Positions 7,164 through 23,900 of a DNA stretch of 64,000 nucleotides are shown here, piece by piece. The stretch spans positions 133,770-197,769 of the forward strand of contig NZ_JAJTNB010000001.1 of the NCBI RefSeq assembly GCF_021300655.1, given 5' to 3'. A program made the translations under genes and the position numbers. The DNA is from Helicobacter kayseriensis (lineage in GTDB: Bacteria > Campylobacterota > Campylobacteria > Campylobacterales > Helicobacteraceae). The notes beneath the pieces are model-generated. The model worked only from the letters and a program-made list of their open reading frames with translations. It was not told the origin of the DNA and did not search any database. Every line of letters begins with the position of its first letter. The stretch's first letter is position 1.

Positions 7164-8305
7164 TGTTTTTGTGCAACTCTCTTGTTATATTGCTCTTTTA
7201 GGATTGGAATAATCAAAGATTGCTTGATTGAAAGATGGCTACTTTTCACCTCATTGACATTTTGAAGTTCAGCAATACTTGTTTTATATTTTTTGGCAAT
7301 ACTATAGAGCGTCTCACCTTTTTTGACACGATGGAGAACATACATTGCATTTTGATTTTTGACAGGTTGAAAGTTTTGTTTAAAAGCTGAGAGTTTGTTG
7401 TATGGAACATAAACAGTATATTTTCCCTTACCGGGAGGTAAAAAATTATATTTAAAGTGTTTGTTATATTTTTTTAATTCATCTAAGGATAAATCAATTG
7501 ACTTTGCCACCTCAAACAAAGGTGTTCCTGCATCTACTTCCACTCCAATGATTGTGCTTGTCGCTCCTCGATTGAGAAAATACTCTCGATTTTCATTTTT
7601 TAAAACATCAGCATTATTAAAAGCTAAGCTCATCCCCAGTATCATACGAATATAGTGTCGCGTCTCTTTAGGAAGATAAGCCATATCTGGATCAATGAGT
7701 GTTTGTATGTCTTTTGTCCCTGCTTTTTTGATTGCCTTTTGAAGCCTTCCGATTCCACAATTATAGGCCATCGCTGCTAGATACCACTCTCCTGTAGCAC
7801 TTTTAAGATATTTGAGATAACGAATCGCAGCTTTTGTGCTTTTGATAGGATCGCGCCTTTCATCAATATATTCATTGATTTTAAGCCCCAATTCTCGAGC
7901 TGTTTTTGGCATTAATTGCCAAATGCCACTTGCCTTTTTGGGACTATAAGCACGCATTGAAAATTCAGACTCTGCCATAGCTAGAAACAAAAACTCTTGA
8001 GGAATCTCTGCCTCCACCATCATAAGGCGCAAAGTAGGAATAATTTCATAGCCTTGATCAAAGCGTTCAACAAAATATTCCCATCTAGCCTGAACGCTTC
8101 TTTCATAAGTCATATTGGCTTGGTTGAGGGCTGGAAGAAAACTAACATCCAAATCAAAAGAATGCAAAATTCCTCCACTTGAGCGGACCTGAGGCATCTT
8201 AAAATCCACCTTTCCCTCATAATCAATCGCACCAAAAGTCAATAAAGTCGTCGTTCCAAAAGAGATCAAAAATTTTTTCAAATCAAATCCTAATAAGCAA
8301 ATCAC
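7160..8305 (-). CDS. mltD: Membrane-bound lytic murein transglycosylase D-like (SLT domain + C-terminal LysM)
   Basis: SLT catalytic region (MAESEFSMRAYSPKKASGIWQLMP; the ES...GLMQ-type motif) and a C-terminal LysM (YVLHRVKKGETLYSIAKKYKTSIAELQNVN). Confidence 0.8.
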   Translation of the reverse strand: MICLLGFDLKKFLISFGTTTLLTFGAIDYEGKVDFKMPQVRSSGGILHSFDLDVSFLPALNQANMTYERSVQARWEYFVERFDQGYEIIPTLRLMMVEAEIPQEFLFLAMAESEFSMRAYSPKKASGIWQLMPKTARELGLKINEYIDERRDPIKSTKAAIRYLKYLKSATGEWYLAAMAYNCGIGRLQKAIKKAGTKDIQTLIDPDMAYLPKETRHYIRMILGMSLAFNNADVLKNENREYFLNRGATSTIIGVEVDAGTPLFEVAKSIDLSLDELKKYNKHFKYNFLPPGKGKYTVYVPYNKLSAFKQNFQPVKNQNAMYVLHRVKKGETLYSIAKKYKTSIAELQNVNEVKSSHLSIKQSLIIPILKEQYNKRVAQKQ

Positions 8306-8326
8306 TTCAAAACAAAATCTGCCATT

Positions 8327-9088
8327 CTACAAAAATAAATTAAAGAGTTCCTGTGTATTTTGATTGCAAAGTTTTTGTATTTTTTCTACAGGAATCCCTA
8401 ATATCTCAGACATTTTTGACACAATCAAAGGAATGTATTTAGGCTCATTTCTTTCACCTCTAAAAGGATGAGGAGTAAGATAAGGTGCATCTGTTTCTAA
8501 TAAAATCCTATCTTGAGGAATTAAAGGCAAAACTTCCACCAATCTTTTTGCATTTTTAAAAGTTAAAACACCCCCGATTCCATAATAAAAACGATCGCTT
8601 AATTCAAGCAAAATCTTATCTGCATTAAAGCAGTGAAATACTCCTCTTGCATTTGGATATTGCTTAAGAATCTCAAAAACTTCAGCACTTGCTTCCCTTA
8701 CATGCAAAATCAAAGGCTTATCGACTTTAATAGCAAGCTCAATTTGCATCACAAAGCATTCTCTTTGTCTTTTTTTGTATTCCTCTATACCCTCAATTGG
8801 AAGCCTAAAATAATCCAATCCACACTCCCCAATTGCTACACATTTTGGATGATTCTGATTTGCAAAAAGACTATCTAAATCAAAAGTATCCAAATGATAA
8901 GGATGCACCCCACTTGCAAAAAATACATTTTGGTATCGCTGTGCAAGCTCAATTGCTCTAGAGCCATCTTGAGGATCCGCACCTGGAATAATAAAATGAT
9001 CAACACCAACTGCCTGCGCTTCACTTAAAACCAAATCCAAATCTGTTGCAAATACTTCGCTATCTAGATGACAATGTGTATCAACCAT
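8327..9088 (-). CDS. tatD: TatD family metal-dependent DNase/hydrolase
   Basis: MVDTHCHLD...GECGLDY motifs. The start was taken at the internal Met of the 259-aa ORF. Confidence 0.85.
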   Translation of the reverse strand: MVDTHCHLDSEVFATDLDLVLSEAQAVGVDHFIIPGADPQDGSRAIELAQRYQNVFFASGVHPYHLDTFDLDSLFANQNHPKCVAIGECGLDYFRLPIEGIEEYKKRQRECFVMQIELAIKVDKPLILHVREASAEVFEILKQYPNARGVFHCFNADKILLELSDRFYYGIGGVLTFKNAKRLVEVLPLIPQDRILLETDAPYLTPHPFRGERNEPKYIPLIVSKMSEILGIPVEKIQKLCNQNTQELFNLFL

Positions 9089-12232: not shown

Positions 12233-14127
12233 ATCTCTTGAGCCTTTTTCACGATCTCTTCAACACTAATCTTAAAAAATACAAAAAGATCATCACCCTT
12301 GCCCGAAGCCCCAAAGCTATCCATTCCAATCACAACCTTTGCGTATCGATACCACTCCATTCCCCTTGAAGCTTCAATTGCGATCGTTTTATTGCGATTA
12401 CTAAGAATCGAGTCTTGATATGCTTGATCTTGCTGAGAAAACAATTCCATACACGGCATACTAACCACTCTCACAGATTTTCCCTGATTTTTTAGCATTT
12501 CAGCTCCCTTGAGTGCTAGATTTACCTCTGAACCTGTAGCCAAGAGAATAACATCAGGATTTTCAGATTCCAAAATCACATAAGCTCCCTTTTGCACTTG
12601 ATCTTTAGAAACAGGTGATAAAACTTCAAGATTTTGCCGACTTAGCACAAAAGCACTTGGAGCTTTCATCTCTAAGGCAACCTGCATGCAAGCAATATTT
12701 TCATTTGCATCAGCAGGACGAAATACCAAAAGATTGGGCATTGCTCTAAAATGAGAGAGTTGCTCGATTGGCTGATGTGTTGCCCCATCTTCTCCCACAC
12801 CGATACTATCATGCGTCCAAACATACATCACCTGTGTTTTCATAATAGAAGCAACCCTTACACTTGGAGCCATATAATCACTAAAAACAAAAAATGTCGC
12901 ACAATAAGGCAAGAAAAGTCCATAATTTGCTATTCCATTGCAGATGGCACCCATTGCATGCTCTCTAACACCAAAGTGTAAATTTCTTCCCTTAGGGAAA
13001 TCTCCTTCATTTTTTAAAAGCGTATTGTTTGAAGGCCCCAAATCTGCACTTCCGCCAACCAGTCCAGAATAACTTCTTGCAATTGCATTAAGGATCTCTC
13101 CATTGCTTACGCGTGTGGCAACTTTATCTCCTTGCTTAAATGCAGGATATTGCACTTGAGAAAAATCTGGATTTTGCAACTCTGCAATCTTGCTTTGAAC
13201 CTCTTGGCTAAGAGATTTTTTCCACTTTTCACATTCACTCATTCCCTTGGCAATGCTTGCTTCAAATGCACTTTTGACTTCTTGAGCAATCACAAAAGCT
13301 TGATCTTTCTCAAAGCCCATAAATTCTTTAGAAGCAGCCACAACTTCTGCACCTAAGGGTGCTCCATGAGTTTTATGACTTCCCTCTACTCCCACTGCAT
13401 TTTTCCCAATGACTGTATGTGCGATAATCAAAGCAGGCTTGCAACTCTCTTTGGCGCTTTTGATTGCCAAATCAATCGAATCAAAATTATGCCCATCACA
13501 CTCAAAAACATCAAATCCTTGAGCTTCAAAACGCCTAGCGATGTTTTCACTCAAAGCAATCTCAGTCCCGCCCTCAATTGTGATTTTATTACTATCATAA
13601 ATCAAAATTAAATTTGAAAGCTGATGATGGCCTGCAAGAGAGCAAGCCTCATAGCTAATCCCCTCTTCCAAATCCCCATCCCCACACAAACAATATACAA
13701 AATGAGAAATGACATTTTCTCCCAAGATTCTTTGTGCATATTTGCTAGCCATTGCAAAGCCCACTGCATTTGCCACACCCTGCCCCAATGGACCTGTTGT
13801 AATCTCAACCCCATGCGTATGCCCAAACTCTGGATGCCCTGGGGTTTTGCTGCCCAATTGTCTAAACTGCTTAAGATCCTCAAGACTCACATCAAATCCC
13901 CATAAATGAAGCAAGCTATACACTAACGCTGAACAGTGTCCCCCACTAAACACAAGTCGATCACGATTGAGCCACGAAGAATCTTGAGGGTTAAGATGAA
14001 GATGATGTGAAAGCACAACGGCAATATCTGATAATCCCATAGGAGCACCTGGATGACCGCTATTTGCCTTCTGCACCATATCTGCGCATAAAATTTTAAG
14101 CGTATTTGACATTATCTCTTTTTGCAT
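12229..14127 (-). CDS. tkt: Transketolase
   Basis: GHPGAPMGL TPP motif, 632 aa. Confidence 0.9.
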   Translation of the reverse strand: MQKEIMSNTLKILCADMVQKANSGHPGAPMGLSDIAVVLSHHLHLNPQDSSWLNRDRLVFSGGHCSALVYSLLHLWGFDVSLEDLKQFRQLGSKTPGHPEFGHTHGVEITTGPLGQGVANAVGFAMASKYAQRILGENVISHFVYCLCGDGDLEEGISYEACSLAGHHQLSNLILIYDSNKITIEGGTEIALSENIARRFEAQGFDVFECDGHNFDSIDLAIKSAKESCKPALIIAHTVIGKNAVGVEGSHKTHGAPLGAEVVAASKEFMGFEKDQAFVIAQEVKSAFEASIAKGMSECEKWKKSLSQEVQSKIAELQNPDFSQVQYPAFKQGDKVATRVSNGEILNAIARSYSGLVGGSADLGPSNNTLLKNEGDFPKGRNLHFGVREHAMGAICNGIANYGLFLPYCATFFVFSDYMAPSVRVASIMKTQVMYVWTHDSIGVGEDGATHQPIEQLSHFRAMPNLLVFRPADANENIACMQVALEMKAPSAFVLSRQNLEVLSPVSKDQVQKGAYVILESENPDVILLATGSEVNLALKGAEMLKNQGKSVRVVSMPCMELFSQQDQAYQDSILSNRNKTIAIEASRGMEWYRYAKVVIGMDSFGASGKGDDLFVFFKISVEEIVKKAQEI

Positions 14128-14179
14128 TTTTTCTCCTTGTTTTCTAGGATTTGGATTCTACATTGTCTCTTTGGAAAAC

Positions 14180-14971
14180 TCAACTTTTCTTGCGATGAAT
14201 TCCTTCGCAAACTCGCATTCCAAACAAAACAATCAACCACGAAACATAAATCCAAAGCATTCCAAACAAAACAAACGACACAGATCCATAAATTGTTTCA
14301 TAAGATCGATTGTGTGCCACATAATAAACAAAACTCCATTTAGCAATATTCCAACCCAAAGATGTCAAAAAAGTTGCAAAAAACAAAGCTTGAGGATTGA
14401 GTTTTTTATTGGCTGAAATTTTAAAAAGAAATAAAAACATCATCCATCCCACCATAATCGGGGCTAGTTGCAATAGGTAGGGAAGAAAGATATAAGATTC
14501 CCAAATCTTTCTAAATTGAAAAACAAAATAAAACAAAACACCAAAAAGCAGAGGGAACAGAGACACAATCATCCAATACAAACTTAAAGAATCAAAAAAA
14601 GTCCGAGGAGAACTACCAAAGACTTTGGAAGTGATATATTCATAGTTTCGGAAAAAGAGAATTGAGGTAAAAAGAATATAAATAAATCCCAAGATTCCCA
14701 TTTTGGAGCTTTGAATCAAAAGCGGATCTAAAAAGCGAGCAACAATCTCTGAATGAGTGGGAAGAACATTTGAGAGCACAAAGTCTTTGATTTCTAAAAA
14801 AGTATTTTGAAAATTGGGCAAAAGTAAGAGAATTGACAGCACAATCAAAAGCAAAGGAATAAAAGCAAAAACAGTATAAAAACTCAGTGATGCAGCATAG
14901 ACAAAGAGCTCATCCTCATGGGTCAAAAAACTATAAAGAGCCTTGGCTTTACAATATAAGCGTTTTAACAT
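14180..14971 (-). CDS. YihY/BrkB (ribonuclease BN-like) family inner membrane protein
   Basis: 263 aa, six predicted TM helices, and the YihY-type N-terminus (FLTHEDELFVYAASLSFYTVFAFIPLL). Confidence 0.7.
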   Translation of the reverse strand: MLKRLYCKAKALYSFLTHEDELFVYAASLSFYTVFAFIPLLLIVLSILLLLPNFQNTFLEIKDFVLSNVLPTHSEIVARFLDPLLIQSSKMGILGFIYILFTSILFFRNYEYITSKVFGSSPRTFFDSLSLYWMIVSLFPLLFGVLFYFVFQFRKIWESYIFLPYLLQLAPIMVGWMMFLFLFKISANKKLNPQALFFATFLTSLGWNIAKWSFVYYVAHNRSYETIYGSVSFVLFGMLWIYVSWLIVLFGMRVCEGIHRKKS

Positions 14972-15005
14972 TGATGAGGCCTGTTGCTACTTTGTCTCAT
15001 ATGAT

Positions 15006-15902
15006 TTACCTACATTCTTTGGCAATGCCAAGTCCCTGATGAGACAAAAGCGCTAAACTCTTTTTGATATCCATAATTTGCAAATCATACTTTTCTAACA
15101 TTTCTAAATCTTTTTGTGGTGTTTCTCCAAGCGTTGTAAGATAATTTCCCAAAACAATTGCATTGATTCCATAATCAAACATCTTTTTTTGATCCAAACC
15201 AAAAACACGCTCCCTTCCTCCTGCAATCATTAAGCGTGAATTGGGAAGATATTCCTTGGTCAATACAATACACTCAAGTGCTTCTTCTTTGGATAAAACT
15301 TCACGCTTAAGAGGTAGTGCGGGATGAGGGATGAAAAAATTGATCGGCACAGAATGCGGAGAAAGAGAACGCAAAGCTTTCAAAAGCTCGATTCGATGCT
15401 TCCATTCTTCTCCAAGCCCAAAAATCCCCCCGCTACAAAGTCCAAGCCCTGCCCTAAGAGCATTTTCACAAGTCTCAAACCGCTCTTCCCAAGTATGCGT
15501 CGTGCAGATAGAGCTAAAAAAACTCTGCGCACTTTCAAGATTGTGATTATAAGTATCGATTCCATGAGCCTTGATATGCTTCAAAGATTCTTCATCTGCT
15601 CTCCCACAGCAAGCTATTAGATGAATATCTTCAATCTCTTTTTTGATCGCTTGGGCCAAAGAGGCGACATATTCACATTTTTTAGAATCTAAGCCCCTTC
15701 CAGAGGTAACAAGACAAAACCCCACCATTCCATACTTTTTGAGCTCTCTTGCCTCAGCAATCACATCTTGAGGATTTTTATATTTATAGCGCTGAACATT
15801 CGTCTCATAATGTGCACTTTGCGTGCAATAAGCACAATCCTCACTGCACCCTCCACTACTGACATTGCTAATTGAACACAAAAAAACTTCTTTTTTCATC
15901 AC
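15006..15902 (-). CDS. bioB: Biotin synthase (radical SAM)
   Basis: CSEDCAYC radical-SAM CxxxCxxC motif and BioB length. Its start overlaps the stop of the upstream DUF5131 gene by 4 nt. Confidence 0.9.
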   Translation of the reverse strand: MMKKEVFLCSISNVSSGGCSEDCAYCTQSAHYETNVQRYKYKNPQDVIAEARELKKYGMVGFCLVTSGRGLDSKKCEYVASLAQAIKKEIEDIHLIACCGRADEESLKHIKAHGIDTYNHNLESAQSFFSSICTTHTWEERFETCENALRAGLGLCSGGIFGLGEEWKHRIELLKALRSLSPHSVPINFFIPHPALPLKREVLSKEEALECIVLTKEYLPNSRLMIAGGRERVFGLDQKKMFDYGINAIVLGNYLTTLGETPQKDLEMLEKYDLQIMDIKKSLALLSHQGLGIAKECR

Positions 15903-16645
15903 AAACCTCTCCTCTTAAAATCTTTAGGATATTCTTTCATTTCCTTGCCTTGAAACAAAGATCCATTTTCTTTCTTGCTTCTTCTTTTTCCATCACTTCC
16001 ATAAGCCCCCCATTGTTTGAAGAAGAAAGCGACTTTTTGATCTTGACATTGTTTTTGGATATTTAAAACCCATTGCTCTTGCATTGCTCTTGCATTGTTT
16101 CCGCTCTCTCCCCCTACAATTACCCAATCAATCCCATCTAAATCCAAATTCCCCAAATCATCAAGAAGTGGTTCACAAGAAAGCCATTTGACTTTTGCAG
16201 GTAAATCTGTAATTTCTTTGATTCTATGTTTTACCTTGCTTGATTCTACTGTTGTTCCAAGCCAAGCATTTTGAGGGATAGGATGAGAGAGAAAATATTC
16301 TCTCATTCTTTTTGGGCGTTTGGTGAGAATTTGGTATTGATGTTGAGGGGTATCTGTAATGACCTGCATCACTTGATCTAAAAAAGCAATATCCATTTTT
16401 TCATGAAATAAATCACTCATAGAATTAACAAAATACAAAGTTGGCTTTTTATTCTTTTTTGGTTCATCTAGTCGATGCGGAAGCATCGTGAAAGCAAAAC
16501 CATTTTTATAGTCAGGATTTCCCATCGCTTGCAAGCGTTTTGCCATTACTTCGGCATAGCAATTCTTACAACCATTGCTTACTTTGTTGCATCCAATTGT
16601 GGGATTCCAAACGCTTTCAGTCCATTCAATTTTTGTTTTCTTCAT
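15899..16645 (-). CDS. DUF5131 / phage Gp37Gp68 family three-Cys-motif protein
   Basis: The N-terminus MKKTKIEWTESVWNPTIGCNKVSNGCKNCYAEVMAKRL matches the family hallmark (TKIEWTD-TWNP-GC-x-S-GC-x-CYA) with C-x7-C-x2-C. It is paired with a TcmP gene upstream. Confidence 0.7.
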   Translation of the reverse strand: MKKTKIEWTESVWNPTIGCNKVSNGCKNCYAEVMAKRLQAMGNPDYKNGFAFTMLPHRLDEPKKNKKPTLYFVNSMSDLFHEKMDIAFLDQVMQVITDTPQHQYQILTKRPKRMREYFLSHPIPQNAWLGTTVESSKVKHRIKEITDLPAKVKWLSCEPLLDDLGNLDLDGIDWVIVGGESGNNARAMQEQWVLNIQKQCQDQKVAFFFKQWGAYGSDGKRRSKKENGSLFQGKEMKEYPKDFKRRGL

Positions 16646-17804
16646 AGCGAACCTTGTAGAGAATCTGTCCTTCTTTATAATAGTTGTAACCTAGATAAAA
16701 GGTTGTTTTTTTCTTGCGTTTATCAGAGATAAAATCTAATCTTCCTTCTTCATACCATTCTTGCAGAATTTTTCCACATTCAGAGAGTTTAACTTCTTGC
16801 GTAAGAGAAAATTTAAAAATGTCATTATTGTTCCGATAGGTCTTGAGGAACTCAGACAGATTTTTTTTAAAGTTTGAAAAAAATTGTTCCTTTTTTTCCT
16901 CAATCTCTAAATCAAAAAAAAGATTTCGGTTTTCCTTGTTATACCCTTGTCCCAAATCCTTGTCTAATTTCCATTTGATTTCCACAGCTTTCTCAAGTCC
17001 ATAAATATGTTTTGTGAGATAAAATAATGCATAATACTGTTTCTTTTCGGCTTCAATGTGGTAGCTACAGCTATAAGTATTTTCATCTCTCATTGCTTCT
17101 TTGATGTGTGTGATAAATTCAATTTGATTTTTACACTCTCCCGATCTGATGGGGTGTTCTTTGTTTGAAAAGAAGCTACAAAGGAAATCTTCCAAAGATT
17201 CACACAACAACCTATCATCTTCTGAAGTCTTTTCCTTTGCTTTTGAGAAACGATACATTTGAGCGATTGGTAAAAATAATACTATTTCATTTTTATTTCC
17301 TTCCATAAGTCTATCTATAACATTTTTGTTGATATTCTTATATCCATAAGGGTCAATAAAAATCATAGTCTTGTATCGATTTTGTTTTGTTTTTAGTATT
17401 TGAAGTATCTCTTCAAACATCTCTACATAATCTATTGAATAATAATTAACCTTGATTTTTTGGTTTTTCTCTTTTTTGTCTATATAGGTTTTTATTCTGT
17501 CAATATTCTTTTGTTGTTTATCATTAAAATAAAAACTAATCTGCTTATCTTTTTCTTCTACTAATTTATAAGCAATGTCATAAGAGAGAATAGCACTCCC
17601 CTTTTCTCCATTGTCATAAATCCCCATACCACAGCAAACATCAAATATAATAATCTCATCGCAATATTGTGTTTGAGAAAGGATTTTTAGATAAAGCCTT
17701 AGATAATTCTTATAAAAATCAAGCTTTGCCTTTGAATGATGCAATACATTTTTTTGTGTTGCTTCTTTTTTGCTTTTGTATTTTTTATCATCAATACACG
17801 ACAT
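16626..17804 (-). CDS. tcmP: TcmP family protein ('three-Cys-motif partner protein', TIGR04474-like); Rossmann/methyltransferase-like motifs
   Basis: The region HSKAKLDFYKNYLRLYL...IIIFDVCCGMGIYDNGEKGSAI resembles the TcmP core (..IAYIDLFAGPGRYKDGSKSTP..). There is a downstream IFIDPYGY (DPPY-like) motif. It overlaps the partner DUF5131 gene by 20 nt. Confidence 0.6.
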   Translation of the reverse strand: MSCIDDKKYKSKKEATQKNVLHHSKAKLDFYKNYLRLYLKILSQTQYCDEIIIFDVCCGMGIYDNGEKGSAILSYDIAYKLVEEKDKQISFYFNDKQQKNIDRIKTYIDKKEKNQKIKVNYYSIDYVEMFEEILQILKTKQNRYKTMIFIDPYGYKNINKNVIDRLMEGNKNEIVLFLPIAQMYRFSKAKEKTSEDDRLLCESLEDFLCSFFSNKEHPIRSGECKNQIEFITHIKEAMRDENTYSCSYHIEAEKKQYYALFYLTKHIYGLEKAVEIKWKLDKDLGQGYNKENRNLFFDLEIEEKKEQFFSNFKKNLSEFLKTYRNNNDIFKFSLTQEVKLSECGKILQEWYEEGRLDFISDKRKKKTTFYLGYNYYKEGQILYKVRYEENKN

Positions 17805-19641
17805 TTACACGCTCATCACTGGGGATGTTGAGGTTGAGGAAGGATTCCAAAGTGTAAGTGCCATAGCCATCGATGAAAATAGCTTTGTTTTTATCTTCTA
17901 AAATCTTTAATTCTACTTCTTTATCAATCCCCACCACACAGAGGATATCTTCACATGCAAAAAGCTTATCTTTGACAAGCTCTTCTAGTGGGATATGTAA
18001 AGGCTTGCCTGCAAAGAGTGCAAGATTCCTAGCAATATCAGAAGGAGTGATGTTGGCACTATGGGGGATGATACTTCCCTTATCACTTAGCTTTGCTTTT
18101 TCTCTTAGAGAATACACATGATAGCCTATATCTACGCTAAATTCCTCACCACTTTCATCCCTTAGCTTATCTCCTGCACGATTTACTCTCTCAATCGTAA
18201 TGTCGCTAATCTTTGGTTCACTTCTACCTAGCTTGTTTCTCACAAAATTATAGGCTGTTTTGTTTTTATCTTCTTTGATCTCTTCGGGAAGTTGGACTAG
18301 GATAAATTTACGATTCCCTCCATCTTCTGCATTGAGCTCCATTACTGCTTGTGCTGTTGTCCCACTCCCTGCAAAGAAGTCAAGGATAATGTCATCCTGT
18401 TTTGAGACCATTTCTAAGATTTTATAAACTAATTTTACAGGTTTTGGATTTTGAAAAATCCCTTTGGTTAATATGTTGGACAATTCTTGATTTGATTGAC
18501 GAGTACTTCCGAAATCTTCATATTTCCAAAATGATACTGGGGGCATTCGATCACCTGTTTCACTCCAAAAAGTTTTTCTTTGCGGAGCTTTTTTGCCTTC
18601 AGGATCTAGAAAAATTCTATTGTCATTTTCTAATTCTTTGAGATGCTCTTTTGAATATCTGGGATAAGTTCCACTTGGTGGAGTCCAAATTTGCCCATTG
18701 CCAAATGTGTATTGATAGATTGATTTTTCAGTTCCACTTTTCGCGTGGAGTGGTGTCAATAAATAATCTCCTCGATCGTCACTATCATAGTTCTTATAGT
18801 ATGCTCTTTGCTTTTCTGTTTTTTTGATTCCATGGATTTCTACTAGAAGAATGTTTTTTGCATACACTAAAATATTTTCGTGATTTGTTGAAAAATATTT
18901 AGAATCGTTTTTGATTGTATCAAGGTTTTGCCAGGCAACTTGTGCTACAAAATTCTCTTCTCCAAAAATCTCATCACACAGAATCTTAAGATTGGCTTGT
19001 TCGTTCTCATCAATAGAGACAAATATTACTCCATCCTCACGGAGCAAATCCCTAGCAAGTTTGAGGCGTGGGAGCATAAAGCTAAGCCATCCACTATGAC
19101 TTCTTGAACCCGTGATATTTCTAAAAGTCTGAAGTGTTTTGCTCTCTATTTCATTGCCTTCTTCATCAATCTCAAGTAATCCCACTTCACGCAAGATTTT
19201 TTTGTAGTCTTTTCTAAAATCATCGGGATAGATGAAATTTTCGTTTTTGGTGTTATAGGGTGGGTCGATATAGATCATTTTGATCTTTTCATAGTAGGCA
19301 GATTTGAGGATTTTTAGCACATCAAGATTATCACCGATGATGATTGAGTTCTCTGTAGATTCTCTTTCTTTGCTTCTCTCTACTTCTTCGCTTAGCTCAT
19401 ATTCTACTGGTGTGGTGTAGAGAGTATTGGCTAAGCCTTTGCCTGTGAAAGTGAGCTCATAGCCTTGAGTGTTGGAGTGAGAATCAAGTCCCAAAAGCAT
19501 AGCAAGAGCTTTGAGATTGACTTGCCCCTCGCTGAGAGTGTCAGGGAAGTGTTTTTCTAGTATGGATTTCAAGGGATTATTTTCTTTCGTGCTATCGATG
19601 ATATTTAGTCCTTTTTTTTGGGCTTCTTTTTTATCGATCAT
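17791..19641 (-). CDS. mod: Type III restriction-modification DNA methyltransferase (Mod), beta-class N6/N4 amino-MTase
   Basis: Motif IV IYIDPPYNTKNENFIYPDD precedes motif I ILDFFAGSGTTAQAV (beta permutation). 616 aa, with a 4-nt overlap to res. Confidence 0.85.
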   Translation of the reverse strand: MIDKKEAQKKGLNIIDSTKENNPLKSILEKHFPDTLSEGQVNLKALAMLLGLDSHSNTQGYELTFTGKGLANTLYTTPVEYELSEEVERSKERESTENSIIIGDNLDVLKILKSAYYEKIKMIYIDPPYNTKNENFIYPDDFRKDYKKILREVGLLEIDEEGNEIESKTLQTFRNITGSRSHSGWLSFMLPRLKLARDLLREDGVIFVSIDENEQANLKILCDEIFGEENFVAQVAWQNLDTIKNDSKYFSTNHENILVYAKNILLVEIHGIKKTEKQRAYYKNYDSDDRGDYLLTPLHAKSGTEKSIYQYTFGNGQIWTPPSGTYPRYSKEHLKELENDNRIFLDPEGKKAPQRKTFWSETGDRMPPVSFWKYEDFGSTRQSNQELSNILTKGIFQNPKPVKLVYKILEMVSKQDDIILDFFAGSGTTAQAVMELNAEDGGNRKFILVQLPEEIKEDKNKTAYNFVRNKLGRSEPKISDITIERVNRAGDKLRDESGEEFSVDIGYHVYSLREKAKLSDKGSIIPHSANITPSDIARNLALFAGKPLHIPLEELVKDKLFACEDILCVVGIDKEVELKILEDKNKAIFIDGYGTYTLESFLNLNIPSDERVNVVY

Positions 19642-22598
19642 TTATTCTCTCCTTTCATTTGTTCTCCTTGGATTGTGATATTTTGAAGCAAATTTATAAG
19701 ATCTTGTCTATTGATGCGTGTTTTGAAGCAGATCTTCACACTCTCACCCAAATGCTCTTGAAGTTTTTGGAAAAACTTCTTTGCATAGTCGATCTTTTTT
19801 TGTTCTGTGGGTGGGATATCCCTCTCGCTTTCATAGCCTTTTGTTTCACAAACAAGGAAAATTTTTTGATTATCTTGAGTGTTGATGAGGTAGGCAAAGT
19901 CTGGCTCATAGTTTTTGTAAGGCGTAGGGATAGAGAATTTGGGGAGTTTGGCATAGACTTGAATTGTGAGGTCGTTGATATGTTTAGGATCTTGGGTGAT
20001 GGCCGTAAGCTCAATTTGACTATCATAAACGACCTTATCATAGAGATAGTGCTCTTGTGGCTCACTCTTTTCATCAATATGACGTCCTAGCTTTTCACAA
20101 AGGATACTCTCTTTTGGCTTACCTTGTAAATCATAGAGCAAATCTTCACTGCTAATTTGAGTTTGAATGAAATCATAAGAGATACTTTGAATAATGCTGG
20201 AGTGGATTTCATCTTGGATGATGGTTTTGAGTTCTTGGAAAGATTGCTTAGGGTTTATAAAGAATTTGTTTTTATCAAGGACTTGATAGACTTGAAGCAA
20301 AAAGCTAAGAGGGAGTTTCTCGCTCTTAGCAAACTCAATGAAGTTATTCATCAACAATGACTTATCTGTGTAAAGCTTGGTAGATAGCACTTCTTCTTTA
20401 GTATTTTCGATTTTACTGGTTTGGGAATTATAAGTCTTGGAAATAAGGATGGTAGTTTCTGGGAGAATAGAGAGGGAATTGAAAGCCCTACTGATATTAT
20501 CCATAAGCTCCTTAGTTTGAATATCTTTGTAGATGATTTGTGCTTTTTGATTGATACTTTTCCATAGAGTAAAAAATTCTTCTGCAAGTTCTTTTTTTAT
20601 CCCTGCTGTGAGCTTTTTTCTATTGGCATCATTGGTTTGGTTGCGTTTGTTGGAGGAGGGTTTAAAGAAATCTAGGGCTCTTAAATAGCTTTCCTCTCTT
20701 AGAATTTCTAAAAAGTCTTCTTTTTCATCTCTAAGGATTTCGTGGATTGGTTTTATGCACTTATAAAATTCTCTTGTGGTTGCCTCAATTGCCTTGCTTC
20801 TTTTTCTTAGATGATAGATAAAGTCTTCGGCTTCATCGGGGGTGAAATAAAGTTGAGAGCAAAGAATGTTTTTGTGGAGGGTTTTGTGATTGAAAACAAA
20901 GCTTGTATCTTCAATCTCCTTTTGTAGCTCTTCGATGAACAATCCTTCTTCACCGCTGATAAGTACATCAAGTGCATTGATATCATAGAAGAGATTGTCA
21001 TCTCCATTGCAATAAGTGTAGGTGATTCGTTTTCCCTCTTGATTGACAGCTAATCTCAGCCCTCTTCCAATTTGCTGATGACGACTTGTAGAAGTGGCAG
21101 AGCTTGCAAGTTTAACAAGAGTAAAAATATTGGGGTTATCCCATCCTTCTTGCAAAGCCCAAACGCTAAAAATGAATTTTAGAGGGGTTTTGATAGATAG
21201 AAGCTTTTCTTTTTCTTCTAGAATAAGTTTTACTCCTTCAGCTTCTTTATCATCTTTTGTCCCTTTATCTCCACTAAAATATCCTTCTGCTACGCAGAGT
21301 TCTCCTTTGTCGTTGAAGTCTTGGGCTAGATAGGATTTGTAGTCTTCTGAGAGGTTGGGGTTTGCAAGAATTTGTTCTCGTTTTTGAATATAGAGTTTTT
21401 CAAAGATAGTTTTAATTCTTGGAATTTCTCCTCTAAAATCATCAATATGAGGGATAAAGAACAAACAAAGTGCTTTTATTCCTTTTTTAAAAAGTTTTTC
21501 TTCTTTTTCAAAATGCAAATCTATAGCTTTGGCAATGAGATTTGATAGTTGAGAATCATCTAGCTCATAAGAAGTAGAGAGTTTATGGACTTCTTCACTA
21601 TTACTTAGAATGATAGAATTTGCTTTGCCTCTTAGGATTTCTTTACCCTTCCATTGTGGATAATGCAATTTCTCTCCAATATCCTCCCCAAAAAATACAC
21701 TTGCCTTGCGCGCAATATTCTCAAGCACATAAGAAAAGGTCGCATATTTTTCTTTGGGGTGGCTTGAAATAAGTTTAGGAGTGAGTGTATTTTCATAGAG
21801 AGTATGAACATTGATTTGTTTGACAAGGTATTCTCTAAAAGCACTAATACTATCAAGACAATAAACAAGATTGCTTAGATTGTGGGGTTCTTCTGTGGGG
21901 AATGTTGCACCAAAGCGAAAATAAAGCGTTTGAAAACTTTGAAATACCTTATCAAACTCCTCACCTTTAAGCAAATGAGGCTCATCGATAAAGCAAATAG
22001 GTTTAAGATCAATAATATTGTCCAATATTGTCTTATTGTTAAAAAGTTTTTCATTTTGACGTCGCAAAAGATTTGGCTTGCCTTTTTTCTCCTCGCCCCC
22101 TTTATCAATTGAACTATTCGTGAGAATCAATACAGAGAGCTCATCTTCATTTTTGATATAGCCATTGATGATTTGACTCAAGGATTTCTCATCATTATAA
22201 TAATAAGCTTTGAGATGCTTGGAATATTGAGTATAAAAATACTCTTTTGTAAGATTAATATTTTGCTTAACAGATTCGGCAATGGCCTTACGCGGGACAA
22301 AAATAATAAATTTGTTTTGAAAATAATGCTTGTGGAGTTCAAAAATCGTATTGAGATAGGTAAAAGTTTTGCCCGTCCCTGTTTCCATCAAAACATCAAT
22401 ATTTTTTCTCTCACCAAGAGTTTGGATAGGCTGAGGGTTTTGCGTATAAAAAGCCTTAAAACACTCCTGTAAACTTTGAACGCTATGCGTATCAAAGTCA
22501 AAGTTTTTTAGAAGTGCAATGATATTATTAATACAATCTTGCTGATATTGTTGCGTTTCAAAAATCATTGAAGATCCTACTTGAAAATTAAATCGCAT
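19638..22598 (-). CDS. res: Type III restriction enzyme Res subunit (SF2 helicase + C-terminal PD-(D/E)XK endonuclease)
   Basis: Walker A METGTGKTFT, motif II CFIDEPHLL, the QxxGRGLR context (QQIGRGLRLAV), and a C-terminal nuclease motif YEPDF...LVCETKG. 986 aa. Confidence 0.85.
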   Translation of the reverse strand: MRFNFQVGSSMIFETQQYQQDCINNIIALLKNFDFDTHSVQSLQECFKAFYTQNPQPIQTLGERKNIDVLMETGTGKTFTYLNTIFELHKHYFQNKFIIFVPRKAIAESVKQNINLTKEYFYTQYSKHLKAYYYNDEKSLSQIINGYIKNEDELSVLILTNSSIDKGGEEKKGKPNLLRRQNEKLFNNKTILDNIIDLKPICFIDEPHLLKGEEFDKVFQSFQTLYFRFGATFPTEEPHNLSNLVYCLDSISAFREYLVKQINVHTLYENTLTPKLISSHPKEKYATFSYVLENIARKASVFFGEDIGEKLHYPQWKGKEILRGKANSIILSNSEEVHKLSTSYELDDSQLSNLIAKAIDLHFEKEEKLFKKGIKALCLFFIPHIDDFRGEIPRIKTIFEKLYIQKREQILANPNLSEDYKSYLAQDFNDKGELCVAEGYFSGDKGTKDDKEAEGVKLILEEKEKLLSIKTPLKFIFSVWALQEGWDNPNIFTLVKLASSATSTSRHQQIGRGLRLAVNQEGKRITYTYCNGDDNLFYDINALDVLISGEEGLFIEELQKEIEDTSFVFNHKTLHKNILCSQLYFTPDEAEDFIYHLRKRSKAIEATTREFYKCIKPIHEILRDEKEDFLEILREESYLRALDFFKPSSNKRNQTNDANRKKLTAGIKKELAEEFFTLWKSINQKAQIIYKDIQTKELMDNISRAFNSLSILPETTILISKTYNSQTSKIENTKEEVLSTKLYTDKSLLMNNFIEFAKSEKLPLSFLLQVYQVLDKNKFFINPKQSFQELKTIIQDEIHSSIIQSISYDFIQTQISSEDLLYDLQGKPKESILCEKLGRHIDEKSEPQEHYLYDKVVYDSQIELTAITQDPKHINDLTIQVYAKLPKFSIPTPYKNYEPDFAYLINTQDNQKIFLVCETKGYESERDIPPTEQKKIDYAKKFFQKLQEHLGESVKICFKTRINRQDLINLLQNITIQGEQMKGENK

Positions 22599-22661
22599 TG
22601 TATCTTTTGTTATCTTGATATATTTGCATTTTTTAAAATTATCTATATCTCAAGGATCATT

Positions 22662-23900
22662 ATGCAAAAGCCTCTTAGTGTTTTTGAGCTCAATGCACAA
22701 ATCAAATCCATCTTGGAAGAAACCTTTTTGTCCGTATTTGTTGAGGGTGAGATCAGCAATCTCACTATCCATTCAAGTGGTCACATTTATTTTAGTCTCA
22801 AAGATTCTCAAAGCTCTATTGCTTGCGTCCTCTTTAGGGGCAATGCCCAACACCTCAAACTTGAGCTCAAAGAAGGCCTTCATGTCGAAGTGATAGGAGG
22901 ACTTAGTGTCTATCCTCCAAGGGGGAATTATCAAATTCTCTGCAAGCAAATCCTTTCCTCAAAAATCGGAAATCTCGCACTTGCCTATGAAAATCTCAAG
23001 CAAAAACTCCACTCTCAAGGCTATTTTCAAAACAAAAAACCCCTCCCCCCTTTTCCCAAAAAAGTTGCACTCATTACTTCTGCTACAGGAGCAGCCTTGC
23101 AAGATATGCTCAAAATTGCAAACAAACGCTGGAGATTGACAGAATTTATCATCATCAACACTCTAGTGCAAGGAGAAGGAGCAAAACTCTCTATCGCTCA
23201 AAATATCGCCTTGGCCGATTCTCTAGAGGGCATTGATTGTATTGTATTGGCTCGTGGAGGGGGAAGCCAAGAAGATCTTTGGGCATTCAATGAAGAAATG
23301 GTGGCAGATGCCATTTATCATGCCAAAACCCCCATTATTTCTGCTATTGGGCATGAAAGCGATGTGCTTATTAGCGATTTTGTAGCGGATTGTCGAGCTC
23401 CAACTCCAAGTGGAGCTATGGAGCTTTTACTCCCAGATCAAGTGCAATGGCTCTATGCCCTTGAAGAATTAAGAGAAAAATTTAGCCAAGCTTTTAGGAA
23501 AATTTTGGGGCACAAATCCCTTCTTCTCTCATCCCTTCAAGATCAATATAAATTTGCCAACCATTCTTATAAAATCCAACTTCAAGAAAAAGAATGCCAT
23601 CAAATCAAACAAATGCTTCAGCTCAAAATCCAGACTATCTTAAAAAACAAAACACAAGAATCCCATATGCTCATCTCACAATTTCACTCTTTTCAACTCT
23701 TCCAGCATTTTGAAAAAACGCTTGATTCTCTCCAGCACTCTCTTGCTCTACACAACCCATCACAAAAATGCAAAAATGGCTATGCTCAAATTACAAAAAA
23801 TGGAAAAGTGTTTAATTTGGAAGAAATACAAGAAGAAGAGATTTTTGAGCTTACAAGCCCAAAAATCACCATCAAGGCCCAAAGACTACCAAAGGACTAA
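22662..23900 (+). CDS. xseA: Exodeoxyribonuclease VII large subunit
   Basis: OB-fold N-terminus (MQKPLSVFELNAQIKSILEETFLSVFVEGEISNL) and the catalytic region. The start was taken at the internal Met of the 439-aa ORF. Confidence 0.85.
   Translation: MQKPLSVFELNAQIKSILEETFLSVFVEGEISNLTIHSSGHIYFSLKDSQSSIACVLFRGNAQHLKLELKEGLHVEVIGGLSVYPPRGNYQILCKQILSSKIGNLALAYENLKQKLHSQGYFQNKKPLPPFPKKVALITSATGAALQDMLKIANKRWRLTEFIIINTLVQGEGAKLSIAQNIALADSLEGIDCIVLARGGGSQEDLWAFNEEMVADAIYHAKTPIISAIGHESDVLISDFVADCRAPTPSGAMELLLPDQVQWLYALEELREKFSQAFRKILGHKSLLLSSLQDQYKFANHSYKIQLQEKECHQIKQMLQLKIQTILKNKTQESHMLISQFHSFQLFQHFEKTLDSLQHSLALHNPSQKCKNGYAQITKNGKVFNLEEIQEEEIFELTSPKITIKAQRLPKD

Follow-up and report, generated by a model that had tools for sequence, protein, structure and literature searches.

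The gene pair that encodes TcmP (a three-Cys-motif partner protein, NCBIfam TIGR04474) and a DUF5131 protein (Pfam PF07505) is listed in PADLOC as PDC-M30. PDCs are predicted systems that were put forward through 'guilt by embedding' in loci of BREX, DISARM or type I restriction-modification (R-M) systems (bioRxiv 10.1101/2024.01.29.577857). DUF5131 has been placed in the radical S-adenosylmethionine (SAM) superfamily as subgroup Megacluster-5-2, while spore photoproduct lyase forms Megacluster-5-3 (PMC9477430). Here we describe a TcmP-DUF5131 pair from Helicobacter kayseriensis, found in a stretch of 64,000 nucleotides (assembly GCF_021300655.1, contig NZ_JAJTNB010000001.1, positions 133,770 to 197,769 of the forward strand) that is referred to below as the window. 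The pair as such is already catalogued (TIGR04474/PF07505, PDC-M30), and this locus is a new member of it in a type III R-M-coupled context. Our preferred reading, which we hold with about even confidence, is that tcmP and the DUF5131 gene form a mobile, translationally coupled two-enzyme SAM-dependent module that acts on nucleic acid, most likely DNA.

The window TcmP (392 amino acids, aa) matched TIGR04474 over residues 23-279 with 118.5 bits (cut-off 53) and the PADLOC model PDC-M30A with an E-value of 3.6e-88. It gave no match to any Pfam model at E up to 10 and none in PHROGs, and a sequence search of the PDB returned nothing for either protein of the pair. When a TcmP profile was run against the PDB, only a 39-residue match to the NEDD8 E1 regulatory subunit was obtained, which was judged spurious. 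Conservation was determined in alignment A1, with 59 TcmP homologues that are 33-87% identical to the window protein, and in a wide set (A4) extended by representatives of the exhaustive profile search described below, by a copy from a Gordonia phage, and by four paralogues, of which three are short and one is divergent. The original prediction, which had been made from the letters of the DNA, had delimited both open reading frames (ORFs) of the pair exactly as they were found, and had pointed to IIIFDVCCGMGIY as a SAM-binding-like motif I in TcmP. This motif was no chance pattern, as D55, C58, G59, G61 and Y63 were invariant in A1, and the other invariant residues included H23, S24, A26, K27, G69, S70, N94, D95, D151-Y155, E173, F177-I180 and R185. 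In A4, K27, Y34, D55, G61 and D151 were conserved at 100%, and G59, S70, D95, P152, G154, P179 and R185 at 90% or more.

The segment IFIDPYGY had been noticed about 90 residues after motif I, and this spacing holds, with 96 residues from D55 to D151. It had also been taken for a degenerate [DNS]PP[YF] motif IV, and this part has to be corrected. The variants DPFGM, DPCGY, DPWGY and DQCGY occur in A4, and D151, P152 and G154 alone persist across the set, which reduces motif IV to a core of D-P-x-G in place of DPPY. D-P-Y-G-Y may be a DPPYG motif that was shortened by one residue. The suggested likeness to amino-methyltransferases was not supported by family models, since no amino-methyltransferase model of Pfam matched TcmP, and the 25 families that most of the 59 homologues matched included no DNA amino-methyltransferase family.

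The AlphaFold2 model of TcmP (pLDDT 89.2, pTM 0.88) starts with a helix at residues 22-43. It is followed by strands beta1 (50-55), beta2 (88-94), beta3 (117-122), beta4 (144-150) and beta5 (172-178), a helical insert (180-237), and beta6 (244-253) and beta7 (256-264), which form a hairpin. The model has the seven-stranded sheet with an antiparallel strand 7 that characterizes class I methyltransferases, as well as the Gly-rich motif I after beta1 (D55-x3-G59-x-G61) and the acidic residue that ends beta2 (N94-D95). By position, the conserved segments correspond to motifs I, II and IV of methyltransferases, as they lie on beta1 with its loop, at the end of beta2 and after beta4, and the Rossmann/methyltransferase-like fold that had been anticipated is borne out by the model. 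The top fold matches were the 23S rRNA m6A methyltransferase RlmJ and the tRNA enzyme Trm1, and a fold search of BFVD with TcmP gave generic methyltransferases only, with low TM-scores. Towards the C terminus the model shows a wHTH (winged helix-turn-helix) of three helices and a beta-hairpin. The Pfam model PF22560 (GMT-wHTH) matched 41 of the 59 homologues, with a best E-value of 1.7e-11, and the window TcmP was below threshold. Winged helix-turn-helix domains are more typical of DNA binding.

A sequence search of the PDB with TcmP gave no RlmJ match, and RlmJ was the best match by fold only. RlmJ and its homologue LPL1258 share with TcmP the order of the motifs and the D-x3-G-x-G-x-Y motif I (D40-T-H-A-G44-A-G46-R-Y48 in RlmJ, D55-V-C-C-G59-M-G61-I-Y63 in TcmP), which is followed by a G-S-P element (G99-S100-P101 and G69-S70-(P), respectively). 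Further shared features are the acidic end of beta2 (motif II, E118 and D95), the catalytic Asp-Pro after beta4 (motif IV, I-D164-P-P-Y and I-D151-P-Y-G-Y), the lysine of the N-terminal helix (motif X, K18 and K27) and the aromatic-x-Pro after beta5 (motif VI, W195-Y-P197 and F177-L-P179). In RlmJ, SAM is contacted by H42, S100, E118 and D164, K18 and D164 are catalytic and essential, and W195 is positioned for stacking on the target base; its catalytic site is closer to that of DNA m6A methyltransferases than to that of RNA m6,6A enzymes (PMC3814359). The agreement in pattern is coherent along the entire domain. By pattern, the family invariants of TcmP appear to match residues that matter in RlmJ, which would argue that TcmP is an active SAM-dependent enzyme and not a dead scaffold. 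By analogy with E118 of RlmJ, the acidic residue at the end of beta2 in TcmP may bind the ribose of SAM (PMC3814359).

The partner (248 aa) matched PF07505 with 339.5 bits (threshold 28.9) over residues 3-240, on model positions 1-243, and PADLOC PDC-M30B with an E-value of 1.1e-114. In PHROGs it matched phrog_2045, a family of unknown function. Its residues 18-30, GCNKVSNGCKNCY, span a Cys cluster that had been described as C-x7-C-x2-C; this was a miscount, and the actual spacing is C19-x6-C26-x2-C29. These three residues were invariant in 34 DUF5131 homologues, together with C200 and G178-G-E-S-G182, and the triad is presumed to provide the ligands of a [4Fe-4S] cluster. Of the further conserved, CxxC-like cysteines that had been proposed, C200 stands, whereas C156 is variable and the protein, with five Cys in all, has no second CxxC. 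The loop of residues 21-30 had a mean pLDDT of 58 in the model, as would be expected for a cluster loop that is modelled without its metal. The best fold match of the model was spore photoproduct lyase, followed by viperin at a nearly equal score, and an RlmN-type radical SAM methyltransferase was also among the top matches. The partial or full TIM-barrel core fold of the radical SAM superfamily is present in the model. As both the family and the predicted fold are of radical SAM type, DUF5131 is probably the main catalyst of the pair. The idea of a metal-binding partner falls short in that the protein is probably an enzyme and not a mere metal-binding helper.

The two genes are closely linked. 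A scan with one genome per species yielded 80 loci, and in 77 the next gene downstream of TcmP, in the same orientation, encodes DUF5131. Two of the other three loci are truncated by contig ends, so that the arrangement holds in 77 of 78 informative loci. The two proteins differ in conservation: within the same loci TcmP was 28-39% identical to the window protein, as compared to 47-62% for DUF5131. In a search of a large protein collection, even homologues of DUF5131 from other phyla were 62-65% identical, and for TcmP the best relatives from beyond its immediate clade had 35-43%; the closest homologues come from Helicobacter. A conserved enzyme with a fast-evolving partner would fit a catalytic subunit with a targeting or specificity subunit. 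The exhaustive profile search recovered 3,375 TcmP clusters at 50% identity (E 1e-3 or better), and the pair was found in bacterial phyla, haloarchaea, phages and plasmids, and the plasmids that carry TcmP genes belong to Bacteroidota, actinobacteria and haloarchaea. In phages, DUF5131 was present in 181 records, as compared to eight with a TcmP-like gene, all of them from Gordonia phage and mostly annotated as 'methyltransferase'. A cryptic TcmP beside every DUF5131 was considered and rejected: phiE125 gp38, upstream of Gp37/DUF5131, is not a TcmP relative (probability 0.1%), and the same holds for the 366-aa protein encoded next to DUF5131 in H. macacae.

Some variation in the arrangement of the pair was observed. 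In Gordonia phage Easley, genes 38-39 (L081:3983-5850) encode a DUF5131 protein and a TcmP-like 'methyltransferase' in convergent instead of tandem orientation, and lie in the lysogeny region, between integrase/helix-turn-helix genes and the immunity repressor. Mycobacterium phage Purky gp67 (L082:3489-4550) and phiE125 gp37 (L083:3495-4487) are DUF5131 proteins of 330-353 aa, as compared to about 245 aa in bacteria, and no TcmP neighbour was detectable for either of them; the extension of the phage proteins may replace the TcmP partner. Four loci (L011:1112-4632, L052:8444-11923, L068:6070-9538 and L060:9113-11884) have an additional TcmP paralogue of reduced length, which immediately precedes full-length TcmP and DUF5131 on the upstream side. 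These paralogues are approximately 280-308 aa long, match PADLOC PDC-M41A and lack the wHTH, and in three of the four loci they are preceded by a conserved ORF of approximately 214 aa. In one locus (L073), a TcmP-like gene is found on both sides of DUF5131.

The flanks of the pair are rich in R-M genes. In the 93 larger flanking proteins, domains of DNA N6-adenine methyltransferases were the most frequent Pfam matches, with Eco57I (8), N6_Mtase (7), MmeI_Mtase (5) and N6_N4_Mtase (2), and PADLOC labelled these methyltransferases as type IIG, type I or type III R-M, DrmMI, PglX or mad2. Other flanking proteins were SNF2/DrmD-like, RecD-like and HerA/mad8-like. In 10 loci the gene directly upstream (-1) is an R-M methyltransferase gene in the same orientation, which corresponds to the place of Mod in the window. 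Homologues of the window Mod occurred within 10 kb in approximately 6 of the 80 loci, and those of Res in one. The cassette res-mod-TcmP-DUF5131 recurs in another Helicobacter (L085; Res 51%, Mod 46% and DUF5131 78% identity) and is also found in C. jejuni (L088/L089). The proposed tie of the pair to DNA modification through Mod is plausible, as the type III link recurs in Campylobacterota, but most loci have no nearby Mod.

In the window, four minus-strand ORFs with overlapping ends, encoding Res, Mod, TcmP and DUF5131, form a single block. Res and Mod overlap by 4 nt, the Mod stop and the tcmP start by 14 nt, and the tcmP stop and the DUF5131 start by 20 nt. The translation of Mod carries the canonical IDPPY and FAGSGTT motifs. 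The DUF5131 stop in turn overlaps the start of bioB (GTG/ATG at 15902/15899; window 15895-15905), with a Shine-Dalgarno-like AGGAG within the final DUF5131 codons, just upstream of the bioB start. Through this overlap the four-gene cassette directly abuts a housekeeping radical SAM gene (bioB, biotin synthase), with which it may be co-transcribed. A promoter and terminator scan of positions 14000-23000 gave counts equal to those of shuffled controls. The operon order is res followed by mod, likewise in L085 and in L089 of C. jejuni; the textbook order of type III R-M systems is mod followed by res. The 2-kb bin 16001-18000, which contains most of tcmP and the DUF5131 gene, had a GC content of 0.326 as compared to 0.34-0.41 in nearby bins, and a strongly negative AT skew, which would fit a cassette that was acquired horizontally. 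The coordinates of all features are collected in the table.

Table. Features of the R-M-coupled TcmP-DUF5131 locus, in window coordinates (CDS, coding sequence).
Feature	Position	Strand	Basis
tcmP CDS, three-Cys-motif partner protein, 392 aa	16626..17804	-	ORF; TIGR04474; PADLOC PDC-M30A
Predicted class I SAM-methyltransferase-like domain, TcmP residues ~20-280	16965..17747	-	
Motif I IIIFDVCCGMGIY, TcmP residues 51-63, beta1 and following loop; D55-x3-G59-x-G61-x-Y63	17616..17654	-	Conservation in A1 and A4
N94-D95, C-terminal end of beta2, motif II acidic position	17520..17525	-	Invariant in A1; D95 at least 90% in A4; position from model
Motif IV-like IFIDPYGY, TcmP residues 148-155, end of beta4	17340..17363	-	D151-P152-Y153-G154-Y155 invariant in A1
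Predicted C-terminal wHTH (three helices and beta-hairpin), TcmP residues ~297-387	16644..16916	-	Model: H297-319, H326-335, H340-352, E356-360, E383-387
DUF5131 / 'phage Gp37/Gp68' CDS, radical-SAM-superfamily protein, 248 aa	15899..16645	-	ORF; Pfam PF07505
C19-x6-C26-x2-C29 cluster, loop after first strand; presumed [4Fe-4S] ligands	16559..16591	-	Invariant Cys
Mod, type III R-M methyltransferase, 616 aa, directly upstream of tcmP	17791..19641	-	Pfam N6_N4_Mtase 4.4e-42; PADLOC MTase_III 1.4e-156
Res, type III R-M restriction subunit, 986 aa, first cassette gene	19638..22598	-	Pfam ResIII and RE_endonuc; NF012027 3.8e-123 (residues 10-974); PADLOC REase_III 4.1e-107

The analysis shows to which families the two proteins belong, how they are predicted to fold, which residues are conserved, and how the genes are linked and surrounded; SAM binding, Fe-S binding, a physical complex of the two proteins, DNA as the substrate and any product are inferred. 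TcmP would have an RlmJ-like class I methyltransferase fold with the N-terminal lysine helix, the SAM-binding motif I, the acidic motif II and a D-P-x-G catalytic loop, and its C-terminal winged helix would dock on nucleic acid. It would act as the fast-evolving targeting subunit and possibly also N-methylate. DUF5131 would be the slowly evolving catalytic subunit with a radical-SAM-type barrel, in which the invariant C-x6-C-x2-C would hold a [4Fe-4S] cluster for the cleavage of SAM to the 5'-deoxyadenosyl radical, and this radical chemistry would act on a substrate presented by TcmP. The pair would be a mobile cassette with a preference for sites immediately downstream of R-M methyltransferase genes.

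Several observations weigh against such a module. An hhalign comparison of the TcmP profile with E. coli RlmJ was not significant (probability 1.9%), and the residue equivalences with RlmJ consequently come from the motif pattern and the fold rank, without superposition. TcmP does not show the motif IV of N6-adenine/N4-cytosine amino-methyltransferases, [DNS]-P-P-[YFW], and no methyltransferase model of Pfam matches the window protein. On the side of DUF5131, the canonical radical SAM motif CX3CX2C is absent and PF04055 gave no match. Accepted members of the radical SAM superfamily with non-canonical Cys spacings exist. DUF5131 without a detectable TcmP is found in H. macacae as well as in phages, so that the radical SAM enzyme need not have TcmP as its partner. 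In L085 (7925-9020) and in L089 of C. jejuni (7998-9004) TcmP is split at the same point into ORFs of 79 aa and 216-279 aa. The smaller piece contains the N-terminal helix and motif I and ends in ...KGSPL RIL..., and the larger piece extends from motif II onward and has D-Q-Y-G in place of D-P-Y-G. The split is common to two genera. It could mark a protein that works in two pieces, a site of recoding or a pseudogene of some age; L089 also has res and mod each in two pieces. The substrate is not readable from sequence, with an rRNA enzyme as the closest fold of TcmP and viperin, a nucleotide enzyme, next to spore photoproduct lyase among the matches of DUF5131. In the searchable literature there was no biochemical or genetic study of the TcmP or DUF5131 families, and no functional work on PDC-M30, PDC-M41 or GMT-wHTH.

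The same evidence can be read in other ways. The pair might be a self-contained anti-phage defence system that hitch-hikes in R-M operons and makes no stable self-modification; TcmP would sense or target the invader, and DUF5131 would damage its nucleic acid radically or make a viperin-like antiviral nucleotide. We judge this unlikely. In its favour, both proteins match PADLOC models of PDC-M30 and PDC-M41, the PDC-M30A and PDC-M30B genes are adjacent, and the type IIG, I and III R-M genes in the flanks are accompanied by SNF2/DrmD-like, RecD-like and HerA-like genes. The Easley pair lies between integrase and immunity repressor, an interval that is a typical place for prophage-encoded defence genes. 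In S. meliloti the TcmP gene SMa2243 is two locus tags from the defence gene hna (SMa2245) (PMC12445080). The definition of PDCs through embedding in BREX, DISARM or type I R-M also favours defence, but PDCs are predictions, and the available part of the preprint reports no test of PDC-M30 (bioRxiv 10.1101/2024.01.29.577857). Moreover, a pure sensor would not need the conserved methyltransferase-type catalytic residues of TcmP, and DUF5131 is common in phages, early lytic regions included, which fits counter-defence or DNA metabolism at least equally well. The radical SAM defence system Ophion was set aside as a different, three-gene system. More doubtful is an R-M-like or R-M-guarding system based on radical chemistry, in which TcmP would serve as the Mod or specificity subunit and DUF5131 as the effector. 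TcmP would then mark or recognise DNA and the radical SAM subunit would install a new hypermodified base or a lesion on the target; as a guard, the radical SAM subunit would fire when phage anti-restriction, e.g. SAM depletion, disables the neighbouring R-M system.

We consider it very unlikely that DUF5131 is a spore-photoproduct-lyase-like enzyme of DNA repair or lesions, with TcmP as its lesion- or DNA-recognition partner and an incidental association with R-M and mobile elements. The neighbouring Megacluster numbers of DUF5131 and spore photoproduct lyase in the radical SAM subgroup list are consistent with it (PMC9477430), and so is the wide occurrence of the family in phage genomes. In addition, the phiE125 record notes a similarity of Gp37 to M. 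tuberculosis Rv2734, and this gene groups with Rv2735c, recX and recA in a set of genes that respond to mitomycin C (PMC5057432), which lends weak support; Rv2734 is a putative DUF5131 protein on the strength of that record note. However, the neighbourhoods of TcmP-linked DUF5131 are dominated by R-M and defence genes and not by repair genes, and a partner that keeps SAM-methyltransferase catalytic residues would be left unexplained. Less probable still is that the pair modifies rRNA or tRNA, with TcmP as an RlmJ/Trm1-like methyltransferase and DUF5131 as an RlmN/MiaB-style radical SAM enzyme. This would agree with the top folds of TcmP and with the RlmN-type match of DUF5131. Housekeeping RNA-modification genes, however, are not as a rule mobile, patchy, borne on phages or plasmids or located inside R-M operons, the wHTH points rather to DNA, and even the catalytic site of RlmJ resembles more that of DNA m6A methyltransferases (PMC3814359).

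The pair is widespread and already flagged as a defence candidate, and the analysis pinpoints candidate functional residues, namely K27, D55, D95 and D151 in TcmP and C19, C26 and C29 in DUF5131. The window offers a natural test bed, as it holds an intact pair within the operon of a complete type III R-M system, and relatives exist in C. jejuni. Should the pair carry out a DNA-directed radical reaction, it would represent an enzyme class that is new to DNA modification and phage defence; as a mere accessory methyltransferase pair, it would amount to a routine improvement of annotation. If the R-M-like system on radical chemistry is real, bacterial immunity would include a new class of radical SAM enzymology that is directed at DNA.

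In comparison to described systems, TcmP differs from RlmJ in several ways. RlmJ has DPPY where TcmP has D-P-Y-G-Y (family core D-P-x-G), and the helical subdomain of RlmJ between motif I and the G-S-P element appears, by sequence spacing, to be missing from TcmP. Unlike RlmJ, TcmP has a helical insert between beta5 and beta6, a C-terminal wHTH, a radical SAM protein as partner, and mobility. TIGR04471 is named 'radical SAM mobile pair protein A' and thus, by name, is likewise a mobile paired radical SAM protein. DUF5131 matched this model over residues 16-211 (E 3.5e-31) with 108 bits, far under the 355-bit cut-off, and is related but distinct; to our knowledge, the partner in the TIGR04471 system is other than TcmP. 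With type III R-M systems the window pair shares one operon of overlapping genes that includes complete Res and Mod, and on this analogy the conserved effector subunit would be directed by a variable subunit that resembles a methyltransferase. TcmP and DUF5131 are, however, not homologous to Mod and Res, and the pair mostly occurs without them. The TcmP/PF07505 pair (PADLOC PDC-M30) is the closest described system. Membership in it says nothing on mechanism, because the family has no assigned function. The window pair has the same family models, adjacency, order and strand, and no structural difference was found. What sets it apart from the pair in general is that it is joined to a type III res-mod operon, a minority context that is recurrent in Campylobacterota.

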